From Patescibacteria group bacterium (GTDB lineage Bacteria; Patescibacteriota; Patescibacteriia; GWA2-46-9), in NCBI GenBank assembly GCA_041660005.1, contig JBAZXG010000001.1, forward strand, positions 4,253 to 68,252: a stretch of DNA of 64,000 bases, in the 5' to 3' direction. Of this stretch, positions 31,249 to 63,486 are shown piece by piece. The notes under the pieces were generated by a model that ran no database searches, was not told the origin of the DNA, and saw only the letters and a program-made list of their open reading frames with translations. Position 1 is the stretch's first letter, and every line of letters starts with the position of its first letter. Both the position numbers and the translations under genes were made by a program.

Positions 31249-33327
31249 CTACTTCTTTGCCCGCTCCCCAACGATCGTTTCGGTAACGTTTCGAGGAACT
31301 TCAGAATAGTGGGCAAACTCCATGGAGTGGCTAGCGCGGCCCTGAGACATTGAGCGTAATTCCGTCGCGTAACCGAACATTTCAGCCAAAGGAACCAGTG
31401 CGTCAATAACCCGCATACCACCGCGTTCACGCATTTCCTGTACCTGTCCACGGCGTGCATTAACGTCTCCAATAACATCACCCATAAACTGCTCCGGAGT
31501 AATGATTTCTGTTTTCATCATCGGCTCCAAAAGTACAGGATTTGCGCGCTTACAACCTTCTTGGAAAGCCATCGATGCAGCGATTTTAAATGCCGCCTCA
31601 GAAGAGTCAACGTCGTGGTAAGAACCGTCATACACCGCAACACTGACGTCAATCATGGGGTACCCGGCAAGCACACCACGGTCTAAGGCCTCTTGTACGC
31701 CCTTACGCACGGCCGGAATGTATTCGCGAGGGATAGCGCCGCCTTTAACCTCGTCAACGAATTCGAACCCAGCGCCTTCTTTGCGAGGGCTAACGCGCAA
31801 CCAGCAGTGACCGTATTGTCCGCGTCCGCCAGATTGCTTAATGTATTTTCCTTCAGCTTCTGAAACTTTACGAATAGTCTCGCGATAGGCCACCTGTGGC
31901 TTACCAACGGTCGCTTCAACTTTAAACTCTCGCTTCATGCGGTCGACAATGATGTCGAGGTGCAATTCTCCCATACCCGAAATAATGGTCTGCCCAGTTT
32001 CTTCGTCGCTCCTGACCTTGAAGGTTGGGTCTTCTTCAGCCAATTTTTGTAGGGCAATACCCATTTTTTCTTGATCTGCCTTGGTTTTTGGTTCAACCGC
32101 AACGGAAATAACTGGTTCAGGGAAGGTAATCGATTCAAGCACAACGGGTCGCGCTGGATCACAAATGGTGTGGCCGGTAAAGGTGTTACCTAGCCCGACA
32201 GCCGCGGCAATGTCGCCTGCGTAAACCATGTCGACTTCTTCGCGACTATTGGCGTGCAAGCGCACGATGCGACCGATGCGCTCGCGTTCATCAGTAACCG
32301 TGTTTAACACATACGAACCCGACTTCAATGTTCCAGAGTAAACGCGGAAGAAACAAAGCTTGCCGACAAATGGGTCAATAGCAACCTTAAAGGCGAGCGC
32401 GGTAAAGGGCTCGCTGTCGTCAGCTGGAATCAAAACCTGTTCTTCGCTGTCTGGTATAGTCGCCATGACTGGCGGTACCTCAATTGGTGAAGGCAAATAA
32501 TCAACCACCGCATCAAGGAGCTGTTGCACACCCTTGTTCTTCAACGCTGAGCCGCACAGTACGGGAATAATAGTCTGGGCAATAGTCGCTTTGTGGAGCA
32601 CGCGCTTCAAATCAGCAAGCGACGGCTCAGTGCCGCCAAGGTACTGTTCCATCAACACTTCGTCTTGCTCAACAATGGCGTCAATGAGTTTCGCGCGGTA
32701 GGTTGCTACCTTTTCTTTCATGTCGTCTGGAATATCTCGTTCTTCAAATTTCGTTCCTAGTTCGTCCGTATAGAAAAAAGCTTTCTGTGTCAAAAGATCG
32801 ATAATTCCAAGAAAATTCTCCTCAGCGCCAATCGGTAGCTGAATGGGGTAGGCCAGAGGGTTCAATCGTTCGTGAATAGAAGCAAGGTCAGCATAAAAAT
32901 CCGCACCCGTACGATCCATTTTATTGATGAAGCAAATGCGCGGCACGTGGAATTTGTCTGCCTGGTGCCAAACTGTTTCAGACTGCGGTTCAACGCCGGC
33001 CACGCCGTCAAAAACGACGACACCGCCGTCTAACACGCGCAGCGACCGCTGTACCTCAACCGTAAAGTCGATGTGCCCGGGCGTGTCGATAATGTTGATG
33101 CGGTTGTCCTTCCAGAAACAGGTGGTAGCTGCAGCAGTAATGGTGATACCCCGCTCGCGCTCTTGCTCCATCCAGTCCATGGTCGCTTCACCCTCGTGCA
33201 CTTCGCCTATTTTGTGTTTTTTCCCAGTATAGAAAAGGATGCGTTCCGTCACCGTTGTCTTACCCGCATCAATGTGGGCGATGATACCGATGTTGCGTGT
33301 TTTTTCAAATGTATAATCGCGAGGCAT
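31249..33327 (-). CDS. fusA: Elongation factor G
   Basis: [25 protein letters not shown]. 692 aa. Confidence 0.95.
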
Positions 33328-33451
33328 AGATTAAGAATTTATGATAATCCCCACATTGATGCGGGAAGGGGTCGGTGAACCTGGGTTCCCGCGGCGGAAA
33401 TACCAAAACCGAGGGGTTGTGGAGAGCAGTGGCGGATGCCGCTGCGATGCG

Positions 33452-33510
33452 AAATGTGGGCGATGATACCGATGTTGCGCGTTTTTTCAAATGTATAATC
33501 GCGAGGCATA
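33452..33510 (-). repeat. 59-bp direct duplicate (1 mismatch) of the fusA ribosome-binding site and first 19 codons, about 180 bp upstream of the real start
   Basis: 33270-33328 versus 33452-33510 are near-identical. Inverted copy of fusA codons 17-22 at 33349-33364. Confidence 0.7.
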
Positions 33511-33617
33511 GTTTAATGCTTTAAGCTGTACGTTTTACGCTTTACGTTGTTTTACGTTGATTCTTATTTCACTAAATGAGCGCGCGTATAGCGTAGTACG
33601 TACTGCCATTGTCGCGC

Positions 33618-35856: not shown

Positions 35857-37425
35857 TTATAGATCGTTACCCGTGTACGACAAACTGAAACTTTTATTGA
35901 TGAGCGGAAAATCTGGTACGACATTATGCGCTCCGGCATGCCCCAGTAGCGACCAGTTCATAAACGAAGGGTCGCGCAAGGCAACTCTGGTAATATTGCC
36001 GCGTTCGTCGGTTTTTACAAAATAGACTATTTCCCCTCGCCATCCTTCGACCACGCTTATTGCCAGTGCATTTTTTTTGTATGGAGTAGTGCTGGCCAGA
36101 CTGATTGGTCCTTCGGGCAGGGTCTGCAGTGTTCGCTCAATTAAGGCAAGCGATGCACGCGCCTCTTTAATGCGAACATAAAATCTTGCATAAACATCTC
36201 CACTTTCTTCAGTTTCAACTGTTTTAAAACCGAGTCCTTCGTAGGCAGCATAGGGAAAATCCAGACGCGCATCAGTTTTAATGCTAACTGCCCGAGCGGC
36301 AACGCCCGTTGCTCCATGCTCTAAAGCAATTTGAAGAGCGAGTACGCCAGTACCCTTCAAGCGGTTAAGGAGCGAATCGCTATTTTCAGCAACTGCAATA
36401 ACTTCACCAAAATCTTTTGCTATGAGAGCAAGGTCTTGCAAAAGTTTTTTCTTTGCTTCATCGGTGATGTCCTTCGTCACTCCACCGCACATACTTACAC
36501 CGCGCAAAAACCGAGAGCCGGTCAACCGTTCGTTGATTTGCATCACCATCTCCCTGAGACGAGCGCCTTGCGCCCCGCCAAAATTAAACCCCGTATCAGT
36601 CATGATGGCACCAATATCACCAAAGTGATTCGCTAGCCGTTCTAATTCTGCGTACACAACGCGTAAAGAAGCAGCTCGCTTTGGCACAGTCACATCACTT
36701 AATTCTTCGAGCGCCTGACAAAACGCGAGTGAGTGGCTAAATGAACTATCTCCAGAAATTTTTTCAGACAGACGCACCATGTCCGTTGACGATAATGTTT
36801 CGAATATTTTTTCACTCCCTTTATGCGTATACCCGAGCCGAGGTTCAAGTAAAATTATTTCCTCTCCTGCCACACTAAACCGGAAATGACCCGGTTCAAT
36901 AATCCCCGCGTGAATAGGACCCACTGGTATCTCGTAGATTCCCTCCCCTCCTACTTTTTGAAACTCATATGTTCCTATTGCAGTCTCTGGTCTTGTTTGC
37001 CAGTCAAAGTCTTTTCTCAATGGATAGACGTCTGCGGGCCAATTTTCATGAAGAATGTTCGGTCGATCGTCAGGATGACCAACAGGGTTCAAACCAAAGA
37101 AAGTTCTGATTTTTCTTTCGTGATTCCAAGCTTCGTGAATATCGGCAGATAAAGATGGAAATTCATTCGTACCTTTTAAACTGATAAAAGGAACGATGAA
37201 GGCATGCTCTCCCGGCACACCGAAGACATACCAAATTCTGAAACAACCATGCTCCTCTCTCTCGTCAGTAGCGGTGATGAACTTGAGCTGCAAATTTTTG
37301 TCATACCGCAAATTGTGAGCAAGGGCACACACCTCTGACACCGCAGTTTCAAAAACAGCGGCATTGCCAAACACATCTATTTTTACGCTACTGGGAATAT
37401 ACTTTTTGAGTTGCTCAATGTTCAT
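35857..37425 (-). CDS. NuoC-NuoD fusion / HycE(HyfG)-like large subunit lacking NiFe-ligating cysteines (Ehr-type)
   Basis: RLGYTHKG replaces the RxCGxCxxxH L1 motif. The C-terminal KSFSLSYTGND replaces DPCxxCxxR. Confidence 0.7.
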   Translation of the reverse strand: MNIEQLKKYIPSSVKIDVFGNAAVFETAVSEVCALAHNLRYDKNLQLKFITATDEREEHGCFRIWYVFGVPGEHAFIVPFISLKGTNEFPSLSADIHEAWNHERKIRTFFGLNPVGHPDDRPNILHENWPADVYPLRKDFDWQTRPETAIGTYEFQKVGGEGIYEIPVGPIHAGIIEPGHFRFSVAGEEIILLEPRLGYTHKGSEKIFETLSSTDMVRLSEKISGDSSFSHSLAFCQALEELSDVTVPKRAASLRVVYAELERLANHFGDIGAIMTDTGFNFGGAQGARLREMVMQINERLTGSRFLRGVSMCGGVTKDITDEAKKKLLQDLALIAKDFGEVIAVAENSDSLLNRLKGTGVLALQIALEHGATGVAARAVSIKTDARLDFPYAAYEGLGFKTVETEESGDVYARFYVRIKEARASLALIERTLQTLPEGPISLASTTPYKKNALAISVVEGWRGEIVYFVKTDERGNITRVALRDPSFMNWSLLGHAGAHNVVPDFPLINKSFSLSYTGNDL

Positions 37426-37426
37426 A

Positions 37427-38863
37427 CTAGTAGTTGAGCGCGGCGCCTTTAATTAAAACCTGTAAAAAGGCGGGCTGATAAAAACTAAGATACAGCACCA
37501 GGGTAATGAGCGCGAACGGTGGAATAATGAGTGTCATCTTTTCTTTCTCTGGCTCTAGATCATGGGGTTTCTCTCCGAAAAACATGTCTGAAGCGTGCTT
37601 TAGAAAACCAATAAACACCATGGCGGTCAGAAGCATTGCTACCACGGTTAAAAACGGATGCAGGGTTATACCAGAAGAGAAAATTAAAATCTTGGTAAGA
37701 AAAATACCGAAGGGCGGTGCGCCCGTTATAGCAAAAATACCAATCAAAAAAAGTACACTCGTTATCGGAAGCGCGCTGAGAGCACCTTTGACCTTGGCAA
37801 TTTTGGTCGAGCTGTATTTCAAAAAAATATTTCCCGACAGTAAGAAGAGTGCCGACTTCAGTAGCGAGTGATAAATCATGTGCAGCAACGCCGCAAAAAC
37901 CCCCACACCACCCAAACCAAAACCAAGCGCAGTGATTCCCATGTTTTCAATGCTCGAATACGCCAGTAACCGTTTGTAATTATACTGCGTGAAGATTATG
38001 AATGAAGCTACAAGAATCGATAGTAAGCCGAAAATAATAAGTAGGCGCTGCGGAAAATCTGGGCCTACAGACGCCGCAGTAATCACCTTAAATCGTAAAA
38101 TCGTAATGAAGGCCACATTCAGAAGGACGCCGGACAACAGCGCGCTCACGGGAACCGGCGCCTTGCTGTGCGCATCAGGGAGCCAGGTATGCATTGGCGC
38201 AAGCCCAACTTTTGTACCGTAACCAATCAGTACAAAAATGAAAGCAATCTTAGCAATCACCGGATCAAGATGCGACGCATTGTTGAGTAAGCTCGTCCAG
38301 GTAGCAAAGCCAGTACTCGTTTGTAATGAACTGAAAAAAAGCAGTGTTCCAAAAAACGCCAGCAGTAAACCAATGGAGTTGATAATGAGATACTTCCATG
38401 CTGCCTCTACAGCTGATGGTTTGTTGTAAAAGCTAATGAGAAACGCCGTAGAAAGCGTTGTGGCTTCAATAGAAATCCAGGCAATGATAGGACTACTGGA
38501 TGAGACGGCCAGAAACATCGCCGCCAAAAAGAGATCCAGCAAAATATAGTACTGCTTAGACCGAGTAAACCCAATAATTTTTTTCGCAGTTTCTTTTCTT
38601 AGATACTGAACGGAATACGTTACCGCCGCAAGGCCGACGCAAGAAATAAGAAGCATAAGGAGCGCCCCCAAGGCATCGACGGAAAAAAATTCAGACGGAA
38701 CATAGTTCCCCGTTGCTGCAACCCTGAGAGCAACAGTCACCGATTCCACCAAAGCAACGCCCACCGCTACAACTGCCGCTACCTCAATGACAGCTCGACG
38801 CCGCACCATCAGGGTGATAAGCGCAGCCGCACATAATGAGAAAAAGATGATTGATACTTCCAT
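37427..38863 (-). CDS. Antiporter-like membrane subunit (NuoM/N, HyfF/Mrp-D family)
   Basis: 14-TM protein with complex I antiporter-like motifs. Confidence 0.7.
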   Translation of the reverse strand: MEVSIIFFSLCAAALITLMVRRRAVIEVAAVVAVGVALVESVTVALRVAATGNYVPSEFFSVDALGALLMLLISCVGLAAVTYSVQYLRKETAKKIIGFTRSKQYYILLDLFLAAMFLAVSSSSPIIAWISIEATTLSTAFLISFYNKPSAVEAAWKYLIINSIGLLLAFFGTLLFFSSLQTSTGFATWTSLLNNASHLDPVIAKIAFIFVLIGYGTKVGLAPMHTWLPDAHSKAPVPVSALLSGVLLNVAFITILRFKVITAASVGPDFPQRLLIIFGLLSILVASFIIFTQYNYKRLLAYSSIENMGITALGFGLGGVGVFAALLHMIYHSLLKSALFLLSGNIFLKYSSTKIAKVKGALSALPITSVLFLIGIFAITGAPPFGIFLTKILIFSSGITLHPFLTVVAMLLTAMVFIGFLKHASDMFFGEKPHDLEPEKEKMTLIIPPFALITLVLYLSFYQPAFLQVLIKGAALNY

Positions 38864-38867
38864 AGCG

Positions 38868-39515
38868 CTAATCTTTTAATTGCTTCATAACACTGGTGTC
38901 GAGTGACCCAAAGTGCAGATAGATCATCGAAATAAAAACAGATGCAATAACCAGCCAAATCGAGATGTCAAAAATGATACCAATCTGAAGCATTGGTGAC
39001 TGTTCAAGTCCTGCAAAAACCGCAAAGGCGACAATACTATTTTCCAGAGAAAGAATACCGATCGCCTGAGACAGTGCACCTTTACGATTAACGATTAAGA
39101 ACAGTGAGATAAGCATTGCAGAAAACGTCAGCGACAATAAAGCGTGGTTGGCAGAAAGAATATCGGTGAGCGGCAAAAACTTTTCAGAATGCGCCACGGC
39201 AGTTAAGACCGTGAGCACGATCAATGTCAGCGGTGTATTTAGATAGGTGCTACCCGAAAAGGTTAAGTCGTGTCGCTGAATCAGTCGAACAAAAAATGAC
39301 GGCGCCAACATAACCTTAACAATGAAGGTTGCCAAAATGATGAAAAGAAGCGGAGCACTACTCGTGGCCAGAAAAGAATTAAATAAAATCAACACAACAG
39401 CAAAAGACTGAATACCATAGGCAACCACGGCTTCAAAATTCTTCTTAATGAGGTGCAAATAAATAATACTTAAAAAAACTGCACCAATTAAAAGGAGTAA
39501 AAACAATGAACTCAT
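38868..39515 (-). CDS. HyfE-like small membrane subunit (hydrogenase-4 component E / NuoK-related)
   Basis: About 215-aa polytopic membrane protein at the HyfE position and size. Confidence 0.5.
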   Translation of the reverse strand: MSSLFLLLLIGAVFLSIIYLHLIKKNFEAVVAYGIQSFAVVLILFNSFLATSSAPLLFIILATFIVKVMLAPSFFVRLIQRHDLTFSGSTYLNTPLTLIVLTVLTAVAHSEKFLPLTDILSANHALLSLTFSAMLISLFLIVNRKGALSQAIGILSLENSIVAFAVFAGLEQSPMLQIGIIFDISIWLVIASVFISMIYLHFGSLDTSVMKQLKD

Positions 39516-40444
39516 AGAATTTCGATGATACCAATAGCTACTGCGCTCAAAACAAAGGAAGTTACCAGAAGATCCGGTAATCTAAAGAACCTGAACTTCG
39601 CAGTCGTGGATTCAAGAACTGCAATAATAATGCAGAGTACGAATATTTTTGCGAGAAGCGCAGCCATACCCAACAGAACGGCACTAGCGTCTGCACTCGC
39701 AGCAATGCCATAAGGGAAAAACACATTCGCACCAAGAGCGGCAAAAATAAACAACTTGTTAGACGCCGCCCATTCCATGAGCGCCAACTTCTTTCCTGAG
39801 TATTCTAAAATCATCGCCTCGTGAATCATGGTGAGCTCCAGGTGCGTGGCCGGATTATCAAAAGGGAAGCGTCCGGTTTCAGCAAGTAAAACAATAAAAA
39901 AACCTGCAAACGCCAACACCATTGGTAAAAAGTACTGAACGGTAAATAATATTCTGGCATCCGCTATCACAAAAAGATTGGTCGTTCCGACCATGAGCGA
40001 AACCGCGACGAGTGCAAGTATGAGTCCCCCTTCTGCGAGTGCGGAGACGGTCATTTCACGACTAGAACCAAACCCGCCAAAGGCACTGCCCGTATCCATA
40101 CCAGAGAGCGCCAAAAAAAACGTACCAATAGCAAGTCCATACACTACCATTAAGAGATCGCTCGTTACCGCATTGTTCAAAAAAGAAGCGAACAACGGAA
40201 TACTGGCACCGATAACTACGGTAACCGTAAAAACAATCACTGGCGCAGCAGAAAAAATCCAGGAGGCGTCTCGGCTTACTACCTCATCCTTATGCATAAG
40301 TTTCCAGATATCACGGTAGGGCTGCAGAATACTGGCTCCGTCACGATTCTGCAACTTTGCTTTAATTTTTCTGATAATGCCGACAAAGAGCGGCGACAGT
40401 ACCGGCACAAAAACAAGTTGCATTATCCAAACAAGAGTCGTCAT
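39512..40444 (-). CDS. NuoH / HycD(HyfC)-like membrane subunit
   Basis: GIIRKIKAKLQNRDGASILQPYRDIWKLMHKDE and AETGRFPFDNPATHLEL signature motifs. Confidence 0.75.
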   Translation of the reverse strand: MTTLVWIMQLVFVPVLSPLFVGIIRKIKAKLQNRDGASILQPYRDIWKLMHKDEVVSRDASWIFSAAPVIVFTVTVVIGASIPLFASFLNNAVTSDLLMVVYGLAIGTFFLALSGMDTGSAFGGFGSSREMTVSALAEGGLILALVAVSLMVGTTNLFVIADARILFTVQYFLPMVLAFAGFFIVLLAETGRFPFDNPATHLELTMIHEAMILEYSGKKLALMEWAASNKLFIFAALGANVFFPYGIAASADASAVLLGMAALLAKIFVLCIIIAVLESTTAKFRFFRLPDLLVTSFVLSAVAIGIIEIL

Positions 40445-42501
40445 ATATTTATGGTGCTAAACAACAGGGCGGCTATAACGGCCACAAAAATATACAAAAC
40501 ATACATATTGATGTTCCCGCTCTGAATCGTCTTGGCGCGCATCGACAACGCGGTAACCACCTGACGAAGCGGCTGATAAAAATAGAGCTGATAGACATCA
40601 CGCGTCGTTAAATGTACCGTCCTCGATTTTGGCAAGTACCGCATCTCTGAATCGTGGTATTCAACATCGTGCTGCATGCTCGGCTTTAAAATACCGGCAA
40701 AGATAAGCACAATGGATCGGGCAAACCCCACGGCGGTAATTTCCATGCGCGAATTAAGGTCAACGCCGCAATCCCACGTTGACCCAATACTAATTTTCTG
40801 GTTCCTATTAACGATAAACTTAACTAACCAGAAAATCAGAAGAAATGCTAAAACAAAAAAGAAAAAGAACGCGGGTGCAGAAACTGAACCGAAAGCGTTT
40901 GATGCGATAAGTGCACTACGGAAAGCTGGCGCTACAGAAAACGGAACGTTCCGGAACAGATTAAGACTGCTGCTCACGTTAACAAAGAGCGGTCCGATGT
41001 ACCCTGACAATAGCCCAAGCAGAAGGGAGAGCGTAGCTAATGACCCCATGCCCAACGTAAGCCAAAGCGACGATTCTTTGGCATGACCAACTTCAGCACT
41101 CCTCGGTCGAGCGAGAAACGTTACGCCGAAAGCTTTGACAAAACAGGCGAGAGCCAGCCCACCCGTTATAGCCAGTGCACCTGTCGCTAGTACAAAAATT
41201 AACTTTACAAAAATATCCGCTGACGCCATTCCTTGAAGCAAAACCTGAAACGTCAGCCACTCGCTAAAGAAACCATTAAACGGTGGCAAGGCAGAAATCG
41301 CCATAGAACCAATAAGAAAAAAGAAGGCGGTCATTGGCATATACTTGATGAGTCCCCCGTACTCTTCCATGTTCCGTGTATGCGTTTGGTTAATCACTGA
41401 CCCAGCGCTCAAAAAGAGGAGCGACTTGAATATGGCGTGATTCAGGGTGTGAAACAGTGCGGCAGCTAGACCGAGAAGCGCTAGTGCTTGATTACCGAGC
41501 GCTGAAAAAGTAAGCGCACTACCAATGCCGAGAAGAATAATGCCGATGTTTTCAATACTGTGGTAGGCCAAAAGTCTTTTTATATCGTGCTCCGTCAGTG
41601 CATACAGAACCCCGAGAAGGGCAGATACGGCACCAATAACGAGCACAGTTATCCCCCACCACAAAGGAATTGGCTGCAGCACATCGAAGAAAATCCTGAT
41701 CATCATGTAAATACCGGTTTTTATCATGACCCCAGACATGAGCGCCGAGACATGAGAAGGTGCGGCAGGATGAGCACTCGGTAACCAAATATGGAATGGA
41801 ATAATACCGGCCTTTGTGCCAAAGCCGATGAGCGCCAGTATAAAAATAACGTTTTTAATACCTGTAGGAACGAGTGCAACACCTGATTGAATTACTGCAA
41901 AATCGAATGAGCCGGTGAACCTATAGAACAATAAAAAGGCAAGGACAATAAATGCAGTACCAATATGCGTCATGATGAGATACAGAAATCCTGCTTTGAC
42001 GTTGTTCGTATCGTTTTTATCATAGACCACAAGAAAATACGACGCGACCGCCATAATTTCCCAGGCAATCAAAAAGAACAGTCCGTTTGATGCTGATACC
42101 ACCATAAACATGCCCGCGATGAACAAGTGATAAAAAAATCCTAAAGCACCAATACTATAGCGATCGTAAAAATGTTTTATATAGCCGACTCCGTACATTG
42201 AACAAAAAAGAGAGACGACCGAAATAATAAAAATGAAGAAAGCCGCAAGTAAATCAATATGGAAAGAGAAGGAAAGAAGTGGAAAAACCGATGTGCCTAT
42301 TGAAAAAGAAATTGCTTGTGCGCTAGAAAATGCTTGAATCGAAAAGAATATACCCCAGAGCGAACCTAAAGCTGCAAAAAAATGCTGCCAGATATTCGCT
42401 AAGGCGTTTCGTTTTCTAAAGAGTAGTGACCCCGAGGCACCTATAGCATAGAGCGATAGAAGAACACCAAAACTCATTTCAAACGACAAAGGCCCAATCA
42501 T
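40441..42501 (-). CDS. NuoL / HyfB(HycC)-like large antiporter subunit
   Basis: 686 aa. AWEIMAVASYFLV...KAGFLYLIMTHIG motif. Confidence 0.75.
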   Translation of the reverse strand: MIGPLSFEMSFGVLLSLYAIGASGSLLFRKRNALANIWQHFFAALGSLWGIFFSIQAFSSAQAISFSIGTSVFPLLSFSFHIDLLAAFFIFIISVVSLFCSMYGVGYIKHFYDRYSIGALGFFYHLFIAGMFMVVSASNGLFFLIAWEIMAVASYFLVVYDKNDTNNVKAGFLYLIMTHIGTAFIVLAFLLFYRFTGSFDFAVIQSGVALVPTGIKNVIFILALIGFGTKAGIIPFHIWLPSAHPAAPSHVSALMSGVMIKTGIYMMIRIFFDVLQPIPLWWGITVLVIGAVSALLGVLYALTEHDIKRLLAYHSIENIGIILLGIGSALTFSALGNQALALLGLAAALFHTLNHAIFKSLLFLSAGSVINQTHTRNMEEYGGLIKYMPMTAFFFLIGSMAISALPPFNGFFSEWLTFQVLLQGMASADIFVKLIFVLATGALAITGGLALACFVKAFGVTFLARPRSAEVGHAKESSLWLTLGMGSLATLSLLLGLLSGYIGPLFVNVSSSLNLFRNVPFSVAPAFRSALIASNAFGSVSAPAFFFFFVLAFLLIFWLVKFIVNRNQKISIGSTWDCGVDLNSRMEITAVGFARSIVLIFAGILKPSMQHDVEYHDSEMRYLPKSRTVHLTTRDVYQLYFYQPLRQVVTALSMRAKTIQSGNINMYVLYIFVAVIAALLFSTINI

Positions 42502-42503
42502 AG

Positions 42504-43040
42504 TTATGATGGCAGTTTACTTTCTTGCGTTTTCAAAATACGGAGCAAGTGCGCAAGAATGGTTTTGGGTGAAGGTGGATCTCCGGGAATCGCGTAGTCT
42601 ACGGGTATGACTTCTTTTACACCGTCTAATACTGCATAGGACCCTTTAAAAATACCGCCGCTTATAGCGTCGTCACCAACTGCGACAACAATTTTAGGGT
42701 CAGGCGTCGCCTCGTACGCACGGCGCACAGCAACCGCCATATTGCGTGAGACTGGGCCCGTAATGAGCAACATATCAGCATGTTTGGGAGAAGCGACAAA
42801 ATGAATTCCAAACCGTTCTACGTCGTAAAAAGCATTAGAAAGGGCGACCAACTCTTGTTCGCAGGCATTGTCGGATCCTGCGTCAACTTGTCGGATAGCC
42901 AACGACCCACCAAATAACCGTTTAATACTGTCTTGCAATTCTTTACCAAGCACGACAATGTCTGGTTGTTCTTTTTCAATATCAGTCAAAGGAATAACAT
43001 TCCTATGCGTTTTCAAAATTTTCAAAAAAAGTTTAATCAT
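42504..43040 (-). CDS. NuoB / HycG(HyfI)-like small subunit lacking 3 of 4 Fe-S (N2) cysteines
   Basis: DVERFGIHFVASPKHADMLLITGPV and TPDPKIVVAVG conserved. The C ligands are replaced: CNGC becomes DNAC, GACP becomes GDDA, PGCPP becomes PGDPP. Confidence 0.75.
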   Translation of the reverse strand: MIKLFLKILKTHRNVIPLTDIEKEQPDIVVLGKELQDSIKRLFGGSLAIRQVDAGSDNACEQELVALSNAFYDVERFGIHFVASPKHADMLLITGPVSRNMAVAVRRAYEATPDPKIVVAVGDDAISGGIFKGSYAVLDGVKEVIPVDYAIPGDPPSPKTILAHLLRILKTQESKLPS

Positions 43041-43144: not shown

Positions 43145-43663
43145 TCAACGACGAAGGCGTACCGCCCTCTGAACGTCGACCTCATGGACTGGCTTGCCGG
43201 TTTCGTCGACCTTCTGAAGGACGGCGATCACCGACATTTGTTTGATTACACCGTCTCGTTGGCGCTGAGTGAAGTACTCGACAGTACGACGATGCGCTCG
43301 TACGACTGCACCAAACATTGCATCTTGAGTCTGGTATCCGGACGCATGCCCCTTTCCGCAGGGAAAGTGGGCATGGAGTACGAGATGTTCCGCCCCCTTG
43401 ATGAGGGCCGACTCGAGAAGATCCTCGAGTAAATGAAATCGTCTTTGTTGTGTTCGCTGCTTTCCGTACCTAAAATCAACGAACTGTGGATCTAGAACAA
43501 GGCATCCCCCGTTCACGGAATTGAGATGTACATTTCTTGTGTACTTCCAGAGTGTCTCCAGAAGATCAGCCGAATGGCTGCCATCTCCGCACGCGGCCAG
43601 TACGACATGACCATCTCTCGGGAGCGTTCTCGCCCCTAGTGGCTTCAGATATCGTTGCTCCAC
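43145..43663 (-). CDS. Hypothetical protein on a GC-rich island
   Basis: 172-aa ORF in a roughly 60% GC segment. Imperfect hairpin at 43097-43140 downstream. Strand assignment is uncertain. Confidence 0.35.
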   Translation of the reverse strand: MEQRYLKPLGARTLPRDGHVVLAACGDGSHSADLLETLWKYTRNVHLNSVNGGCLVLDPQFVDFRYGKQRTQQRRFHLLEDLLESALIKGAEHLVLHAHFPCGKGHASGYQTQDAMFGAVVRAHRRTVEYFTQRQRDGVIKQMSVIAVLQKVDETGKPVHEVDVQRAVRLRR

Positions 43664-43994
43664 TTCCTCTTCTCCCCTTGCCGCATCTGGCGGCTAAAAA
43701 CTCGACGCGCACATCACGCGCCGGCTTGCAGCCGAGTTTACGCCTGCTTTTTAAAAATGTCAAGATAAAACAACCAATAATTCAAAAATCTCCTCCGTTG
43801 GGCGGAAAAACTTCAAGTCAAAAATTTCCACCAGTCGTTCGAGATCCTGAGAGGTTCTCTCGGACACTGAACGGAAAGCGAACTCGTCCTTACTAATAAA
43901 TTTGGGTGTGTCCCGACGTAAGGCCGAGATCCCGATTCAATTGATTTTATAAAGTAGGTAGCGTCGGGACAAAAGAGTAACAAACAGTCGCGAT

Positions 43995-44087
43995 GTCCCG
44001 TCTGACGGGACCAAGGACATTCATGTAGTTCTTGGTCAAAATTATTGCCGAATAGCATTTGTACCATAGTTCGAACTATAGTACAAA
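43995..44087. repeat. About 95-bp repeat module, left copy: CCCGTCTGACGGG hairpin, spacer, palindrome GTACCATAGTTCGAACTATAGTAC
   Basis: Homologous to 46838-46931 (about 70% identity, same orientation) and partly to 63300-63350. Confidence 0.6.
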
Positions 44088-44177
44088 ATAAAAAAACAGT
44101 GGCTTTGAAAGCGGTTTAAAAAATACTACTCATCATCCTTACATTCTCAAGTATGTAAGGATGAGAAAATTAATATT

Positions 44178-44735
44178 GTAATCCTTCAAGGTCTCTTTTT
44201 TCTACTCTTTCGACTATGCTCACAGCAGATTGCTTAGGAGAGATAGGATCATTTTTACCTTTCGTATAAATGGCAACCCTTCGACTACGCTCAGGGTTAT
44301 TGTTTCTTCCTTATACAAAATTTGAAATCCTACGCTACGCGTTGGTAATCCTTCAGCTACGTTCAGGATCATTTTTACCTTTCCTTGAGGAAAGGTAAAA
44401 ATGAAAAACCTCCCGGCGGGGAGGACAAAAAATTGATAAAAGCAAGCTTCACGTATTGGTCTCATTTTGGCTGAAGGCCAGTTGGGCGATTGCGATCATG
44501 TTCGGCATCGTTGTGAAAATCACGCCGAGCGGAATGAGGCAATTGTTCGCCGCCGGTGCCCGCACCGTACGACCACAGTCGTGCGGAATAAAGACTCCAT
44601 TGCACCCATGTTGTCCCAAAAGAGAATCCAATAATGTTGTGAAGCTGCTTGCCCATTGAAGGGCTCATTAAGTTTAACCCCGTGATAAAAAAAGTCAATA
44701 AATGATAAGAGTAATCCCTCGGCTACGTCGTTTTG
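44178..44735. repeat. Array of degenerate 17-20-bp direct repeats (consensus aatccTTCGACTACGCTCAGG) with interspersed hairpins, iteron-like
   Basis: Copies at about 44178, 44204, 44270, 44322, 44346 and 44711. GGATCATTTTTACCTTTC occurs twice. Confidence 0.45.
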
Positions 44736-44890
44736 ACTTCTCTCGGGATGAATCTTTACGCTTCACTTTGTATTACAAAATATTATAGGTAAAAGATTCA
44801 TAAGTGACTCGAGGCGGCTCCGGAATATCCCTTTTGCAGGACATCCGGAGCCGCCACGATTCGGGTTGAACTAGCGCCGGATGGGGCGCG

Positions 44891-45487
44891 CTAGTTGGGC
44901 GTCGTCTGCGAACCGCACGGCGTACTGCATGTCGGACATGCAGGAGTCCCGTCGGAACATAGCCGCAAAAGCGAGATGACGCCGTCGTCGGGCATCTGAC
45001 AGACCTCCGTGTTCGCGTCCCATGAGTTCAACGCGACACTCGTGAGCTCCAGATCAATGATGGCCCATGACTGATTCCAGACGTCGTCGCCGCCGACTTG
45101 GTCGGCCGGAAGGGCCCAGAAGTTCTGGAAGAAAAGATGGGCGCACCGCTGCGTCTTTTTTCCCCGGAACTTCAAAATCGCCGGTTTCAGCGAGTTGCCC
45201 AAGACCGCGCCGTCCTGGTCAGTGTCGAAAGCCCTTCCAGTGACGAGCATTTTCTCGTACTGGTTTGCCCTCGTGTAGCATGCGGCGACCTCGAGGAGGT
45301 CAGTCACCTGACACGAGTCGCCGGACCAAAGCTGGCGATCGACGTACGTCCACGAGCCGTAGTCGAAGTACGAGCACCCGACTACTGACGCATTGCGGAA
45401 CGTCGCCGCCTCGGCTTGCGGGGCCGTGGCGAACAACGAAACGACGCACAAGAACGCCGCGAGAACGAGAAAACGGATACGCTTCAT
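44891..45487 (-). CDS. Secreted cysteine-rich hypothetical protein on a GC-rich island
   Basis: Signal peptide MKRIRFLVLAAFLCVVSLFATAPQAEA. About 12 Cys. Perfect 11-bp hairpin terminator GGCGGCTCCGG...CCGGAGCCGCC at 44808-44853. Confidence 0.55.
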   Translation of the reverse strand: MKRIRFLVLAAFLCVVSLFATAPQAEAATFRNASVVGCSYFDYGSWTYVDRQLWSGDSCQVTDLLEVAACYTRANQYEKMLVTGRAFDTDQDGAVLGNSLKPAILKFRGKKTQRCAHLFFQNFWALPADQVGGDDVWNQSWAIIDLELTSVALNSWDANTEVCQMPDDGVISLLRLCSDGTPACPTCSTPCGSQTTPN

Positions 45488-45652
45488 GATTTTCCCTCCG
45501 GAAAATTTCCCTTTTCAGGGATGGTTGTGCCCATGAGGTCGGTCGCATCTGTTGGCGACAAACTCACATGAACCGATGAACCTAGCATAAATTGAGGGAA
45601 ATGTCAAGAATAAATGACAAAAATATTTGAAAAATCTTTTTTAAATTTAAAT

Positions 45653-45914
45653 TATAAACTCTTAACGTCCTCGGGCTGTGCCCTCGAGACTAGTTGTCCA
45701 CTTTCTTACTTGTCTAAGAAAATGGACGGAAAGAATGACACCCTCAGGACTCGGCTGGGGCATGACTGCACTCCGAAAACCGATAGTCGTGAACTCCCCG
45801 CCATACTTCTTCAGATGTAGGCGGGTCAAACAGCACGACCATTCCTTCGGTTCTCTCCGTTTGTCATTACCTACGCCGATCCTATGGGACTTTGCACTCC
45901 GCTCTGCCAAACCC
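45653..45914. repeat. About 260-bp interspersed element copy 1: terminal hairpin segment plus conserved core
   Basis: About 85% identical, in inverted orientation, to 63040-63250. Its 5' 80 bp is also found direct at 62823-62905. Confidence 0.6.
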
Positions 45915-46066
45915 TATTGTCGACCAAGGAGAACAAACATATGGCAAACAAAACGATTTCACAAATATTTTGACTTTCTGCAAGGTGACGCGTAGCATGC
46001 TGAATAGAAATATTTTTCAATAAGCGCTCAAATTGAAACGCCAACCTAAAATTTTACTCTAACAAT

Positions 46067-46579
46067 ATGGACGATTTACTGAATCAAATACAAAAAGGGC
46101 TTGATGCAAAATTATATTATCTTGCACTTTTTGCTGCCTTAGCAATACCAGATATCTGTGGTGCACTCGACTCGGAAAATGGTGAAGCCAGTCGTGATAA
46201 ATATATTGCATGGTTCGACGCTAACTTGAAAGAGTACTATGGTGACGAATTCGATGGAAAAATTTGTTATTTTTTTAGATGTTCTTTTTTGCATCAAGGA
46301 TCTTCTATCAAGCAGGAAAGCCCTTACGAAAGAATATTTTTTGCGGAACCTGGATATGGTCATAGTATGCATAATTGTACTTTTAGCAGGACAGGCGTTT
46401 CAAAAAAAGTTTTCTCATTAGATATTGATAAGTTTTGCAATGAAATGATTCAAGCATGTTCAAAATGGCAACAGAAAGTTAAAGACAATAAATTGTTTAA
46501 AAAACATTATGAAAACTTTATGAAACGATATCCCAATGGCCTCGAACCCTATATAAATGGAATACCCATAATTGGTTAA
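46067..46579 (+). CDS. Hypothetical AT-rich 170-aa protein with Rx4H (RCSFLH) HEPN-like motif
   Basis: Long ORF in about 33% GC DNA, which contrasts with its neighbours. Lys/Tyr/Phe-rich. One of only two plus-strand genes in the window; the other is rpmB. Confidence 0.5.
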   Translation: MDDLLNQIQKGLDAKLYYLALFAALAIPDICGALDSENGEASRDKYIAWFDANLKEYYGDEFDGKICYFFRCSFLHQGSSIKQESPYERIFFAEPGYGHSMHNCTFSRTGVSKKVFSLDIDKFCNEMIQACSKWQQKVKDNKLFKKHYENFMKRYPNGLEPYINGIPIIG

Positions 46580-46764
46580 TACCCTTTTTCACTCGGAGTC
46601 TGGATCTTAAAACCCATTGATGTTGTGTTGATGTGTTGTCCGGCGAAAGAAGCTGAAAAAAGTGACGGTTGTGTCTGACGAACGAGAACGTGAGAAGTTT
46701 AATTGTCACCAGCGTATGAAGACGAGCAACACCCAACACAAACACCACGGGGGTCATTTCCGCC

Positions 46765-46797
46765 GAAGGCGGATCCGCCTCTGGCGGACTTTCTCTG
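46765..46797. terminator. GGCGGATCCGCC double-hairpin element (TCCGCC-GAAG-GCGGATCCGCC-TCTG-GCGGA)
   Basis: Third copy of the repeat family, downstream of the 46067-46579 ORF. Confidence 0.4.
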
Positions 46798-46837
46798 CTA
46801 TCTAATCTTAGACAAGTAAGAAAAGTCACAACCTACA

Positions 46838-46931
46838 GCCCCGTCTGACGGGATCGAGGACGTTAACGTAGGTTTTGATAAAAAATTTTTACAAATAAAT
46901 TAGTACCATAGTCTAGACTATGGTACTAATT
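46838..46931. repeat. About 95-bp repeat module, right copy: CCCCGTCTGACGGGA hairpin plus 34-bp perfect palindrome AATTAGTACCATAGTCTAGACTATGGTACTAATT
   Basis: Direct repeat of 43995-44087. Confidence 0.6.
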
Positions 46932-46990
46932 TAAAACTTGTCTTTTAAAAAACTTTTCTTAAAGAAAATAAGAAAAGTTACAAATTTCTC

Positions 46991-47425
46991 TTAGGCTCGT
47001 GGTAAATCCTCTGGCGGTGCTTTATAAAATCCAGACCGCATTAATTGATCGTCTTTCGTGGCTAATATATTTGCCGCTTCATCTAGCGCAACAAGTAATT
47101 TAATAAATTCTTCTACGCTCACTGCTGCGTGAAAATCTCGCTGCATCAACTCGTGGAACTCAGTAATTGTTTTCCGTAATGTTATTGCATTGATTCCTCT
47201 TTCACGCTGACCGAGCGCTTCCGCTTGAGTATAAATTTCACTCACAACACCTCCTAATTCCCAAAGTGTTCGATGCAGATACTGTCCGAGTTCTTGTGTG
47301 CCTAAATCTCTTGTTTCAAGATACCCCTTGTGCAGAGCAACAAAAGCCCGCACACGTTCAACAAGAGCTTTTAACTCCTCTGCTTTACGCATTTCGCTCG
47401 CCCCTTCGGAATCGTGCTCGCCCAT
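46991..47425 (-). CDS. Hypothetical alpha-helical protein immediately downstream of atpC
   Basis: ORF track entry. 12-bp gap to atpC. No recognisable motifs. Confidence 0.45.
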   Translation of the reverse strand: MGEHDSEGASEMRKAEELKALVERVRAFVALHKGYLETRDLGTQELGQYLHRTLWELGGVVSEIYTQAEALGQRERGINAITLRKTITEFHELMQRDFHAAVSVEEFIKLLVALDEAANILATKDDQLMRSGFYKAPPEDLPRA

Positions 47426-47436
47426 AGTAACAAACT

Positions 47437-47898
47437 TTATGTATCCTGGAGAACGCCTTCTGAACCCACGCTATGCTTGCCGCGATGACGTTTTCGCTCT
47501 GCAATGTGTAAGCGCGCAAGTGAACGCTGCAGCTCAGCAGCAGCATCAGTGTAGTGTTCAGTGTCAACACGTTCGGTCTCCATTATTTGCTTCGCACGTT
47601 CTTTAGCCGCTTTTGCTCTTTCGACATCAATTTCGTCAATGTGCTCGGCAGCGTCTGCCAAAATGATAACCTTGCTACCCGCTTGCACTTCGATAAAACC
47701 ACCCGCCACAAAAATTGATGTAATATCATTACCTCTTTTTATGGTTAGCTCCCCGGGCACGAGCGCGCTAACGAGCGGGATGTGATTTGGCAAAATAGTA
47801 ATTTCGCCGGTGGTCGTCGGCAGTGTTACCTGATCGACCGTCTCTTTATAAACGGTTCGCTCGGGAGTAGTGATTTCGAAATCAATCATAGTAATTAA

Positions 47899-47910
<12 letters not shown>
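47437..47910 (-). CDS. atpC: ATP synthase F1 epsilon subunit
   Basis: Beta-sandwich N-terminal (ITILPNHIPL...) followed by a helical C-terminus. Confidence 0.85.
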
Positions 47911-49830
<1,920 letters not shown>

Positions 49831-57983: not shown

Positions 57984-58943
57984 CTAGCGTTGAACTGGCG
58001 GCCCAATCAACTTAGGAGGAAAAATATTATCCGGCCGTTGCAACTCGGGGTCAATCGTTCGCGCAAAACAAACGCGACCAGCACTGTGATCCCAATTTGC
58101 ATTTTCTATGCGCGTCGGAATGGAAGGCATTGTTTTTCCAACCTGTTCAGAAAACGCCGAAGAAAAAACGGCGCAGAGCTCAAACTGCAAATCAGCGAGA
58201 ACCTTGTACTCATAGGGCACCCCTGTTTCAGGATCAACGGGTACGGTGTAGCCAGTGAGACTGCTGGTGAGGTCCTCTAGTGTTTTGGGTAACGTATTCT
58301 TAGCTACCCAATAATCAACAACCTGACCTTGTGCAGTTTGTAGGTCGCTCACGCGCTGGTCATCAAACCGCCATGCTCGCTGCGTGGCCGGTGAACCGGC
58401 TAAGAAGAAACCGGAAACAACGGCGGCGATCACGAGAGCAGATAGCCCATACGCCAATGGTCGGCTGAACTTGTCTGTAACACCAGCTTCTCGTTTGAGA
58501 TCAGAAAGGTAATACCAAAACACCAAGGCAGCTACCGCTAGCACTACCAATATCTTTAGACCAAACCGCGTCGTCAATTCACCGCCGAGGAAACTCCGAA
58601 TGAGTACGATGAGGTCAATGATGATAGTTACCGCAGCAACAAAAAGCGTAAAGTTAAAAAGCCATCGACGCACGCGAATTTCTCGCTTCTCCGGATCGGC
58701 CTCTACATCTTTACCAAGGAGCCGCAGTACGTAGAGATAGACCGGCCAGGCAACGACGAGCGCCGCAATAGCTCCCTGCATGACGCTGCCGACCACTCGG
58801 CGCGATCGATAAAACTCTAGTGCGTCCGGGAAATACACATCAATAAACTGAAACAATAGCACAATGAAACTGACCACGCTGATAATCAGCGTAACAACGG
58901 CTAGCAAATGCGCAAACACGTCTCGCGGTGTGCTTTTGTTCAT
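57984..58943 (-). CDS. Membrane protein with 4-5 N-terminal TM helices and C-terminal extracytoplasmic domain
   Basis: Hydrophobic segments. The 59063-59102 palindrome lies about 120 bp upstream. Confidence 0.6.
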   Translation of the reverse strand: MNKSTPRDVFAHLLAVVTLIISVVSFIVLLFQFIDVYFPDALEFYRSRRVVGSVMQGAIAALVVAWPVYLYVLRLLGKDVEADPEKREIRVRRWLFNFTLFVAAVTIIIDLIVLIRSFLGGELTTRFGLKILVVLAVAALVFWYYLSDLKREAGVTDKFSRPLAYGLSALVIAAVVSGFFLAGSPATQRAWRFDDQRVSDLQTAQGQVVDYWVAKNTLPKTLEDLTSSLTGYTVPVDPETGVPYEYKVLADLQFELCAVFSSAFSEQVGKTMPSIPTRIENANWDHSAGRVCFARTIDPELQRPDNIFPPKLIGPPVQR

Positions 58944-59062: not shown

Positions 59063-59102
59063 TTTTACACAATTTTGTGCGTACGCACAAAATTGTGTAA
59101 AA
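59063..59102. promoter_or_regulatory. 40-bp perfect palindrome TTTTACACAATTTTGTGCGT|ACGCACAAAATTGTGTAAAA
   Basis: Paralog of 31075-31112. Differences between the copies are symmetric. Confidence 0.5.
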
Positions 59103-59620: not shown

Positions 59621-59873
59621 CTCAGGAAGAGTCTGCCCTTCGGCTCATTTCATTCGCTCAGGACACTTCGACTCAGGAAGAGTCATGGGCACTCGCCCCC
59701 TCGACTAAGTCGGTGTCGCTTACCTCGGCAAAATCCTCGGCATCTTCGACGGGACACTTCGACCTGTGGTGAACGTAGTCGAACCATTTATAGTGAACAA
59801 CGTCGAACCACTCAGGAAGAGTCTGCCCTTCGGCTCATTTCATTCGCTCAGGACACTTCGACTCAGGAAGAGT
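59621..59873. repeat. Two 64-bp direct repeats (59621-59684 and 59810-59873), each containing CTCAGGAAGAGTC inverted pairs. The second abuts the tRNA-Val 3' end.
   Basis: Exact repeat visible in the sequence. Confidence 0.6.
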
Positions 59874-59878
59874 CGAAG

Positions 59879-59955
59879 TGGTGGGCGGCAGAGGATTCGA
59901 ACCTCTGACCTTTTGCGTGTCGAGCAAACGCTCTAACCAACTGAGCTAGCCGCCC
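59879..59955 (-). tRNA. tRNA-Val (anticodon GAC). Position 33 is C.
   Basis: Reverse complement GGGCGGCUAGCUCAGUUGGUUAGAGC G UUUGC UCGACAC GCAAA ... GGUUCGAAUCCUCU GCCGCCCACCA. Confidence 0.8.
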
Positions 59956-62674: not shown

Positions 62675-62822
62675 AACGTTATTCAGCTGTCAAAGGCCAG
62701 CCAACTTTGCCTAATTCTTGAAATTCGCACCGGCGAAACCTTATCAAAAAGTGAGGAAAGTTACAATGAAAAATAATCTGGCCATTAACATGGAGTGTTA
62801 CATCTATTTCGTTTATTTCTTT

Positions 62823-63250
62823 AAAAACTCATAACGTCCTCGGGCTGTGCCCTCGCGACTATTTGCCTACTTTCTTACTCGCCTAAGAAAGTAGACGGAA
62901 AGAACGGCGCCCCGCATCGACGCTCCTGGTCGGCAGCCATTCCGAAACGAACACGGCGGCAATGAACTTGCTACGCTGCAGACAGCATTGCCGCTCAATC
63001 GTGTTCGTTTCGTCTGTCTGCTCTCCCCGGTCGATGAGGGGGTTTGGCAGGAAGTGGAACAATCCCATAGGATCGGCGTCGGTAATGACCAGTGGAGAGA
63101 ACCGAAAGAATGGTCGTGCTGTTTGACCCTGAGTGAAGTCGAAGGGGAGTTCACGACCATCGGTTCTCGGAGTGCAGTCATACCCCAGCCGAGTCCTGAG
63201 GGCGGGCTTTCTTTCGTCTATTTCTTTGCCCGCACAAAGAAATAGACAAC
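62823..63250. repeat. Composite copy 2 of the ~260-bp element: direct terminal segment (62823-62905), a 150-bp unique segment, and an inverted full copy (63040-63250)
   Basis: Alignment to 45653-45914 in both orientations. Confidence 0.6.
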
Positions 63251-63320
63251 CGTCGGCCATGCTAATGGCCAGGTTAAAATTGAGCGATATAAAAAATTTG
63301 CTTAATTCTAACAAAAACTG

Positions 63321-63350
63321 TTTGTACCATAGTTCGAACTATGGTACAAA
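63321..63350. repeat. 30-bp perfect palindrome TTTGTACCATAGTTCGAACTATGGTACAAA, third member of the GTACCATAG family
   Basis: Exact palindrome in the sequence. Confidence 0.6.
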
Positions 63351-63486
63351 ACGAGAATAGCGCTTTTACGAATACAAAAAACAAACAACTACACTTTTTC
63401 ATTCTCACATTCTTACTTGCCCGTCCGTAGTTCGTGATAGCAAACGAAGGTGGGAGAATGTAAGAATGTCAAAATGAATCTTGATT

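Follow-up and report, generated by a model that had tools for sequence, protein, structure and literature searches.

Candidate operator boxes and structured-repeat ends at the borders of a composite 2.9-kb segment in a Patescibacteria genome

Does a segment of mixed composition that lies between two similar direct repeats represent an integrated mobile element, or can such borders have another origin? The question is raised by positions 43995 to 46931 of a 64-kb window (i.e., the whole stretch of 64,000 nt of a Patescibacteria genome that we analyzed), where a 2.9-kb segment sits between the atp operon and a complex-I/group-4-hydrogenase-like operon. A first-pass annotation interpreted this segment as an integrated or decayed plasmid- or phage-derived island with att-like borders. 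We favor a different explanation, to which we assign a probability of roughly 60%: the segment belongs to a region that is rich in intergenic DNA and prone to rearrangement and is not one mobile element, its borders are operator boxes of a Trp-repressor-family regulator fused to the ends of a structured repeat family (here called E), and its interior combines resident and acquired units.

The palindromic box and its associated regulator genes

The three palindromes of the first-pass annotation, including that at 63321-63350, were all recovered. The pattern GTACCATAGT-N4-ACTATGGTAC is present in the window at 44061-44084 (with one mismatch), 46903-46926, and 63324-63347, where shuffled sequences are expected to contain none. 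The box is an inverted repeat with a 24-bp core that extends to 30 bp and is perfect in the second and third copies (P2 and P3). All box half-sites are identical and the 4-bp center is itself symmetric, so the box has no polarity. The boxes and an adjacent hairpin are as follows.

44058-44087: box P1, palindrome TTTGTACCATAGTTCGAACTATAGTACAAA with one half-site mismatch; candidate operator of a YerC-like Trp-repressor-family regulator, on the basis of identity with boxes upstream of yerC-like genes
46900-46930: box P2, TTAGTACCATAGTCTAGACTATGGTACTAA; its CTAG center is also found in Saccharibacteria loci L014, L017, and L020
63321-63350: box P3, orthologous to the box at 11032-11055 of locus L030 of a related genome
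44128-44168, minus strand: CTCATCATCCTTACAT...ATGTAAGGATGAG hairpin, terminator-like, with a T-run on the minus strand; its stem and 3' flank recur beside the L030 ortholog of P3

Pattern scans of genome and metagenome collections identified 39 stretches with the palindrome pattern. The viral contigs, in which the first-pass annotation had proposed to look for it, gave 0 matches. At seven of the scanned loci (L013, L020, L024, L032, L036, L038, and L046), an open reading frame (ORF) of the Trp_repressor family lies within ~100 nt of the palindrome. In three of them (L013, L020, and L036), 9 nt separate the palindrome from the ATG of a gene encoding a Trp_repressor domain, and the palindrome is followed by TATAAAT or TGTAAAT; the other four were added by a hidden Markov model (HMM) of the subfamily, and at L032 the box lies ~12 nt before a TTG start. 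We also made a reverse test, in which subfamily genes (139 to 173 aa) were fetched by protein identity and the palindrome was ignored. The box or a variant of it was found just upstream in 8/8 loci (five distinct genes; L053 to L059 and L064). In these eight loci and in L013, L020, and L036, the distance from the box end to the ATG is 7 to 28 nt.

The box variants alter both half-sites alike (GTACCATGAT-TCGA-ATCATGGTAC, GCTACCATGATTCGAATCATGGTAGC, and GTATTATGAT-TCGA-ATCGTAATAC), and these symmetric changes follow the regulator lineage (i.e., ATAGT/ACTAT to ATGAT/ATCAT and CC/GG to TT/AA). At the equivalent position, a distant subfamily member (L062; 41% identity) carries another palindrome, which is perfect over 36 bp. 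The 24-bp box itself is letter-for-letter identical across distant lineages (Saccharibacteria and other Patescibacteria). The upstream position, the symmetric variants, and the palindrome at the equivalent position in L062 form the pattern of an autoregulated dimeric repressor with its operator. On this sequence-based evidence, the palindrome is most likely the operator of a Patescibacteria subfamily of Trp-repressor/YerC-like proteins of 139 to 173 aa.

Autorepression is implied, because the box at the regulator's own gene precedes TATAAAT and then an ATG 7 to 28 nt on. Under the predicted scheme of protein binding, repression, and transcription directions, the two 10-bp half-sites would be occupied by a regulator dimer, which would thereby block the adjacent promoter. 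The window boxes would mark boundaries of transcription units, P1 being upstream (on the minus strand) of a 172-aa gene and the hydrogenase-like operon, P2 upstream (minus strand) of a dead-end E fragment, and P3 upstream (minus strand) of two E copies (E2/E3) and pyrF.

In L024, L038, and L046, two boxes with an ATAT center (GTACCATAGTATATACTATGGTAC and GTATCATAGTATATACTATGATAC) lie ~70 nt apart and just downstream, not upstream, of the Trp-repressor-like gene.

The bounding modules and the E family

The two border modules were described by the first-pass annotation as homologous and in the same orientation, which holds: they are 76% alike over 58 nt, in addition to the palindrome. The CCCGTCTGACGGG hairpin assigned to both is present as an exact 13-mer at 43997 and 46840, its only two occurrences in the window. 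The interspersed element reported inside the segment was likewise found (E1), with further copies near P3.

43995-44057, minus strand: module A, with the CCCGTCTGACGGG hairpin (43997-44009), a second hairpin (44010-44038), and an AT-rich spacer
46806-46902, minus strand: module B, a truncated E-family 5' end (AACGTCCTCG, CCCGTCAGACGGG, GTTGTGACTTTTCTTACTTGTCTAAGA) and an AT-rich spacer; inverted relative to E1
45652-45945: E1, a full copy of the structured E-family repeat (core, 45690-45862)
63262-63005, minus strand: E2, an E-family copy, tail to tail with E3
62821-63014, plus strand: E3, an E-family copy, tail to tail with E2

The E family is represented in the window by three full copies (190 to 290 nt) and, as modules A and B, by two partial ones. 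Module A, read on the minus strand, resembles the E-family 5' end (xxGTCCTxG, a GC hairpin, and GTTTGTTACTCTTTT). Alignment of the five sequences shows a common order of an AT-rich stretch, AACGTCCTCG, a short GC hairpin, and GTTGT followed by a 13- to 15-bp hairpin with a CTTAC-type stem; therefore, the direct repeats and the interspersed element belong to one family. E1 to E3 run on into a long nested hairpin, while modules A and B end after ~70 nt. In E2, A, and B, ~50 nt separate the GC hairpin from the box upstream of it. Each bounding repeat would be a regulatory module composed of a terminator-like hairpin, the palindrome, an AT-rich spacer, and a short GC hairpin, and the flank shared by the two would be the terminal part (~70 nt) of the E family.

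The E core appears to be structured. In the three-copy alignment, 93% of cells are paired and 14/35 pairs are changed on both sides, compared with 42 to 55% and 0 to 2 double-changed pairs in a control with slid partners; these values come from three copies in one genome, from which the structure was itself derived, and this counts against the explanation that we favor. The strand opposite the box-proximal reading folds better in 3/3 copies (-113/-89, -109/-98, and -81/-73 kcal/mol) and has 22 G-U pairs versus 11, while promoter-like sequences and the boxes favor the other strand. In an Rfam 15 search, only tRNAs reached the gathering score, and nothing credible was found to an E value of 10 in 43600-47100 and 62600-63500, which cover the E copies, modules, and palindromes. 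No further E copies were found in the fetched loci, including those of relatives, by blastn of E1, E2, E3, A, and B or with a covariance model (R1), the remaining matches of which were generic hairpins. Two matches to a 19-nt E core in viral contigs were both due to chance and inside coding genes. Short-read contigs of the same strain break within E1, as they would at a repeat.

Two other roles for E were rejected. An ORF that starts 9 nt after P3 spans E2, but the ORF ends differ between E1 and E2, and 3/3 substitutions in the best-conserved 57 nt are nonsynonymous in the shared frame. A 5' leader or riboswitch is not supported, as the candidate promoters of the 198-aa and 170-aa genes described below lie between E1 and those genes. 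The family is multicopy, noncoding, and variably present (E2/E3 are absent at the L030 site), and we regard it as a structured repeat resembling miniature inverted-repeat transposable elements (MITEs), presumably mobile, and as a candidate new repeat that is so far found in one genome only. Its inverted arms occur only as the E3-E2 pair and as E1 with B. The flank duplications are 13 to 16 nt, imperfect, and AT-rich or hairpin-like; the E2/E3 pair is flanked by copies of a GGCCAT..ATGG hairpin (62780-62793 and 63255-63270).

The segment interior and the related genome

The interior contains the following units.

44178-44404: cluster of degenerate CCTTCRRCT...TCAGG hairpins, irregular, with an exact 19-nt repeat (44245 and 44365) and a perfect 17-bp hairpin (44369-44404)
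44409-44698, minus strand: small unit of ~250 nt, with a promoter-like site (44698-44671) and a terminator (44424-44409; CCTCCCCGCCGGGAGG and then a T-run)
44813-44855, minus strand: perfect hairpin with a 12-bp stem, downstream of the secreted-protein gene; it has TCGAGGCGGCT in common with the hairpin after the positional ortholog of that gene in locus L039
44891-45487, minus strand: secreted-protein gene (198 aa, signal peptide, nine Cys residues in the mature part, 59.8% G+C)
46067-46579, plus strand: HEPN-fold gene (170 aa, R71x4H76, PHROG 18591, 33.7% G+C), with a promoter-like site at 45970-45998
46757-46788, plus strand: double GC hairpin, TTTCCGCCGAAGGCGGATCCGCCTCTGGCGGA and then CTTTCTCT, terminator of the 170-aa gene

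Loci L030 and L039 belong to one 45-kb metagenome contig, the proteins of which are 50 to 80% identical to those of the window. L030 is collinear with 53.6 to 64 kb of the window and has a box at the matching site, between pyrF and a gene for a metallo-beta-lactamase-fold protein. This site keeps the flanking hairpin CCTTACAT...ATGTAAGGATGAGAAAAT and a GC hairpin, and it lacks the ~450 bp that correspond to E3 and E2. In L039, the equivalents of 34.3 to 35.8 kb of the window and of atpC are joined by 3.4 kb, with the minus-strand order atpC, a 215-aa homolog of the 172-aa protein (E 4e-14), a 281-aa secreted-protein gene, a single box, a 180-aa gene, the small unit, and one CCTTC...TCAG hairpin-like unit. 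Five features of the window are not present at this locus: the hydrogenase-like operon, the 144-aa ORF beside atpC, E1, the 170-aa gene, and a second box.

The secreted cysteine-rich gene of ~60% G+C with its perfect hairpin, as reported by the first-pass annotation, was verified. Its promoter (TTGACA-17-TAGGTT at 45607-45579) corresponds to TTGACA-17-TAGGGT before the 281-aa gene of L039, which has a G+C content of 59 to 64% and is followed by a TCGAGGCGGCT hairpin. The 198-aa protein had no homolog among 5.8 billion proteins, and its similarity to the 281-aa protein is confined to the signal peptide (E 0.006); thus, the orthology of the two genes rests on position, promoter, and terminator. 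The part of the small unit at 44440-44670 is a separate unit with blocks conserved at L039 1427-1610 and no common open frame, and 44409-44698 is a candidate small RNA or small ORF.

The first-pass annotation also saw an array of iteron-like direct repeats at 44178-44735. This region instead has ~5 to 6 irregularly spaced, degenerate hairpin-type units and one exact 19-nt repeat. The CCTTCRRCT...TCAGG motif also occurs at 5505, 59637, 59827, and 63128 (six in the window versus 0.03 expected) and in relatives. With irregular spacing, a motif dispersed in the genome, and no rep gene, the region does not resemble plasmid iterons. A separate exact direct repeat of 64 nt (59621-59684 and 59811-59874, 190 nt apart), just downstream of tRNA-Val (59879-59955), contains a CCTTCGGCT...TCAGG hairpin motif.

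Since the matching promoter, terminator, and units are present at L039, the secreted-protein gene, the small unit, and the hairpin motifs are considered resident. L039 holds only part of the interior, so the 2.9 kb are not present or absent as a whole. These resident units would have become mixed with later arrivals, namely, E1 and the HEPN-fold gene.

The plus-strand ORF of 33% G+C with an Rx4H HEPN-like motif was borne out by our analyses (33.7% G+C; RCSFLH). Positions 46067-46579 are the lowest-G+C 500-nt stretch of the window. In 26 diverse homologs, R71 is invariant and H76 is conserved in at least 90%, the motif being RCSLLHQG there. The 170-aa protein has the HEPN helical-bundle fold and matches PHROG 18591 (E 3.5e-33), although it had no match in Pfam, NCBIfam, or PADLOC and a PDB profile search gave nothing relevant. 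The first-pass proposal to search both cargo ORFs thus yielded a family for this gene and nothing for the secreted protein. A profile search found 3,134 clusters (50% identity) among 1.84 billion representatives. The family is carried by 44 phage records, and in Arthrobacter phage Popper the gene adjoins an integrase and an immunity repressor. Seventy-three close homologs across phyla are each a solitary gene in varying contexts; one (L011) adjoins MjaV, mCpol, and MazE/PIN, and the nearest (L060; 68% aa identity) is in an unrelated low-G+C contig with no E sequences or boxes nearby.

These data suggest that the 170-aa gene, which looks horizontally acquired and phage-associated, came from the phage gene pool, and its product is most likely a HEPN-type protein with a predicted RNase activity that would serve defense or exclusion. 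The family is large, uncharacterized, and phage-associated, and it is a reasonable candidate for a single-gene defense or exclusion function. The GGCGGATCCGCC terminator reported after the low-G+C ORF is present at 46757-46788; a terminator motif, TCCGCC-N3-GGCGGATCCGCC, recurs 3' of genes there and at 4070-4089 and 10432-10463. On the 244,965-bp contig, the 170-aa and 198-aa proteins are WC817_00335 and WC817_00330 of NCBI, respectively.

Genes are on the minus strand almost throughout the window. The neighbors of the segment are as follows.

35857-43040, minus strand: operon of the group-4 hydrogenase or complex-I type, with six genes (NuoB-, two NuoL/M-, NuoH-, and fused NuoC-NuoD-like products and one unassigned 215-aa product), preceded by the 172-aa ORF (43145-43663) and box P1
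46951-46979, minus strand: AACTTTTCTTA...TAAGAAAAGTT hairpin followed by a T-run, read directly from the sequence; terminator of the atp operon and the 144-aa ORF
46991-47425: 144-aa ORF, beside atpC
47437-47910: atpC, part of the atp operon

The G+C content is 44.9% for the whole segment and 47.7% for the window. The first-pass annotation regarded G+C extremes as a mark of the segment, which is correct for its low-G+C gene, the only composition outlier (33.7%; z, -3.2). Core regions and the positional ortholog in L039 reach values like the 59.8% of the secreted-protein gene, and stretches as GC-rich as the high-G+C part are also found at 56.4 to 57 kb and 60.7 to 62.1 kb. The segment is therefore not of uniformly foreign composition.

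Other repeats were found outside the segment. Between atpD and atpC (47894-48063), an A-rich repeat of 85 nt (AAAGTCAAAAG...) occurs twice in tandem (87%), with related A-rich pieces at 6832 and 10461. A 102-nt direct repeat (77%; 29791-29892 and 30103-30204) within a 732-aa ORF (28636-30834) probably reflects a repeat inside the protein. The 40 bp at 59063-59102 form a perfect palindrome (TTTTACACAATTTTGTGCGT/ACGCACAAAATTGTGTAAAA) that lies ~120 nt upstream of a minus-strand gene (57984-58943) and may be the operator of another regulator.

Alternative explanations and comparison with known systems

Several observations weigh against the explanation that we favor, the first concerning the regulator itself.

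13330-13671, minus strand: gene for a YerC/YecD-family Trp-repressor-like protein of 113 aa (TIGR02531, E 2e-17), the sole family member in the window

This gene was the only match of the subfamily HMM in the window (E 8e-11), but it lacks an upstream box, and its product shares only ~20% identity with the box-associated subfamily and differs from it in the recognition helix. Because it is of another subfamily and lacks a box, the cognate regulator of the three window boxes was not found in the window. In relatives, the box-associated regulator gene lies between fusA and rpsG; the window, in which no 147-aa-type gene was found, has a fusA-rpsG gap of just 290 nt. None of the three window boxes is directly followed by an ORF start, so the promoters assigned to them as targets are guesses, and consensus promoter scans were near background. 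Several boxes elsewhere lie 9 to 47 nt past a stop codon, a terminator-like position. Because they share an exact 13-mer, P1 and P2 are closer to each other than either is to P3, and this pair may therefore stem from a local duplication linked to rearrangement. Finally, one related genome only covers the locus.

The 290-nt fusA-rpsG gap of the window holds a duplicated fusA 5' end where relatives have the regulator gene: the first ~17 codons of fusA and upstream bases occur twice (33271-33341 and 33453-33523; 93% over 71 nt), and the two copies are separated by a GC-rich insert of 110 nt. A near-consensus promoter (TTGACA-17-TATAGT) precedes the gene at 13330-13671.

The best-surviving alternative is compatible with operator boxes at the borders. 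It supposes a ~1.25-kb mobile unit (~45633-46897) with the HEPN-fold gene as cargo between inverted E termini (E1 on the left and B on the right, both inward), as the cargo-bearing counterpart of the cargo-less E3-E2 pair. The arms at 45693-45719 and 46806-46832 are 85% complementary, with AACGTCCTCG at both outer ends, and E3/E2 are an analogous inverted pair that is absent from the relative and has duplicated GGCCAT..ATGG flanks. E1 and the 170-aa gene, the strongest G+C outlier of the window, are both missing from L039. However, the closest homolog of the gene (L060) is not surrounded by E sequences or boxes, no transposase is known for the E family, and E1 has a possible flank duplication of its own (ACAAAAATATTTGA at 45617 and ACAAATATTTTGA at 45961), which indicates a separate insertion; flank duplications of E are weak evidence because the flanks are AT-rich. 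Given that E1 and B are inverted around the 170-aa gene, such a unit is a live secondary hypothesis, albeit an unlikely one.

A wider scenario, in which the 24-bp box marks a large regulon across several Patescibacteria lineages (~1 site per 20 to 30 kb here), strikes us as distinctly doubtful. The regulator would be a lineage-specific, autoregulated Trp-repressor-family protein, the gene for which is usually placed between fusA and rpsG of the str operon. In this scenario, E would represent a new mobile element or structured RNA that inserts into the hairpin ~50 nt from the boxes or is transcribed from them, hitching onto the circuit and occasionally bringing cargo such as the HEPN-fold gene.

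It is improbable that the palindromes are generic intergenic hairpins (i.e., bidirectional terminators or REP-like sequences) with no dedicated binding protein. Many copies do lie 9 to 120 nt downstream of stop codons, and the boxes sit among other hairpins. P3 was scored as terminator-like on the minus strand (63350-63321; 4/13 GC pairs), while P1 and P2 were not scored. Against this, the palindrome does not have a GC-rich stem with a U-tract behind it on the transcribed strand: the stem is only ~40% G+C, and in P1, L029, and L031 a T-tract precedes and an A-tract follows the hairpin on both strands. Moreover, 24 bp are identical across distant lineages, which is not the case for terminators, the position just upstream of the regulator ATG is fixed, and half-site changes follow the regulator lineage.

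Quite improbable is the reading of the first-pass annotation, in which 43995-46931 is taken as one island of plasmid or phage origin, integrated or decayed, with ~95-bp repeats resembling attL/attR. The modules are direct repeats with an exact 13-mer that is unique to them in the window, the interior is compositionally mixed, one interior gene is of a phage-borne family, and the arrangement is not kept as a block in the one available relative; the description as a mosaic with a phage-associated gene therefore stands, while that of a single integrated element does not. The att-like nature of the repeats is contradicted by a third box 16 kb away (at 63 kb), by orthologous boxes in the relative, and by the boxes at promoters of Trp-repressor-family genes across Patescibacteria. 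The relative has part of the interior as resident units (the hairpin motifs, the small unit, and the secreted-protein gene together with its promoter and terminator), and there are neither regular iterons nor a rep gene. As the first-pass annotation had noted, no integrase is visible: scans of four ORFs within or beside the segment (43145-43663, 44891-45487, 46067-46579, and 46991-47425) gave no integrase or recombinase match in Pfam, PADLOC, NCBIfam, or PHROG. No tRNA gene is at the borders, the five in the window being at 3 to 6 kb and 59.9 kb. The alignment to a related genome that it had suggested revealed no empty site with a single border copy in the one relative, and the single box of L039 is accompanied by interior units in a changed order. 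These results call for caution in island calling, since in a genome transcribed from one strand, repeated regulatory modules always look like bounding direct repeats.

Recombination sites (dif-, res-, or serine-recombinase-type) that mediate regional rearrangement are a very remote alternative: the region is rearranged relative to the relative and the L031 box (2003-2026) lies 11 nt past an ORF that encodes Resolvase, Recombinase, and Zn-ribbon domains, but this is one locus of ~25, no recombinase is near the window boxes, the sites lack polarity (identical half-sites and a symmetric 4-bp center), and the association with Trp-repressor-family genes is far stronger. In the product of the L031 ORF (2037-4877; 946 aa), a large serine recombinase is fused with an MnmA-like tRNA methyltransferase.

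With the preferred explanation of operator boxes, E-family ends, and a mixed interior, each component can be compared with known systems. Like att-bounded genomic islands, the segment has direct repeats around mixed composition and an accessory phage-related gene; unlike them, it lacks an integrase and a tRNA target, its repeats are not border specific, and its interior is partly ancestral to the relative. The E family resembles bacterial MITEs and structured repeats (ERIC, Correia/NEMIS, RUP, and REP/BIME) in being short, noncoding, multicopy, and intergenic, in folding as a long imperfect hairpin, in varying in presence between related genomes, and in adjoining terminator-like hairpins with possible target duplications. 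It differs from MITEs in that a single copy has no clear terminal inverted repeats, in the many compensatory stem changes among copies, which suggest selection on structure, and in having no known parent insertion sequence or transposase and being found in this genome only.

The 170-aa protein shares with HEPN RNases (MNT-HEPN toxins 7ae2 and 5yep, the HEPN domains of Csx1/Csm6, and AbiV) an R-x4-H conserved in the fourth helix, and its family is similarly one of small solitary genes of phage lysogeny modules and defense-gene neighborhoods. It differs in an extra three-stranded sheet (residues 89 to 119) and in conserved PD and Cys residues, and, unlike MNT-HEPN systems, the gene has no MNT antitoxin or other partner gene.

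Patescibacteria have few recognizable regulators, and their transcriptional control is almost unstudied; no link of YerC/TrpR proteins to this group was found in the literature searched. The box and the subfamily represent a testable regulator-operator pair, and the box allows regulon prediction from sequence. TrpR-family operators are palindromes with TGTAC...GTACA ends and lineage-specific consensus sequences, and approximately half of the hisR genes carry their own operator site (PMC9413887). Compared with the TrpR operator, the box is longer (24 to 30 bp versus 20 bp) and has another half-site spacing. Its associated proteins (139 to 173 aa) have a C-terminal extension and the recognition helix KVSRGTIAKI, unlike YerC/TrpR (GASTxTITR), and no trp or his genes adjoin the candidate boxes. 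As with the TrpR/trp operator of Escherichia coli and the HisR (YerC) operators of Firmicutes and Proteobacteria (PMC9413887), the box-associated gene encodes a Trp_repressor domain (PF01371). The inverted repeat of the box is perfect and, like the TrpR consensus TGTAcTnGTnnACnAgTACA, has TGTAC...GTACA at its ends; the box is situated at the promoter of the associated regulator gene itself, as is the site of approximately half of the hisR genes, and its consensus is lineage specific, as are those of the TrpR and HisR operators.

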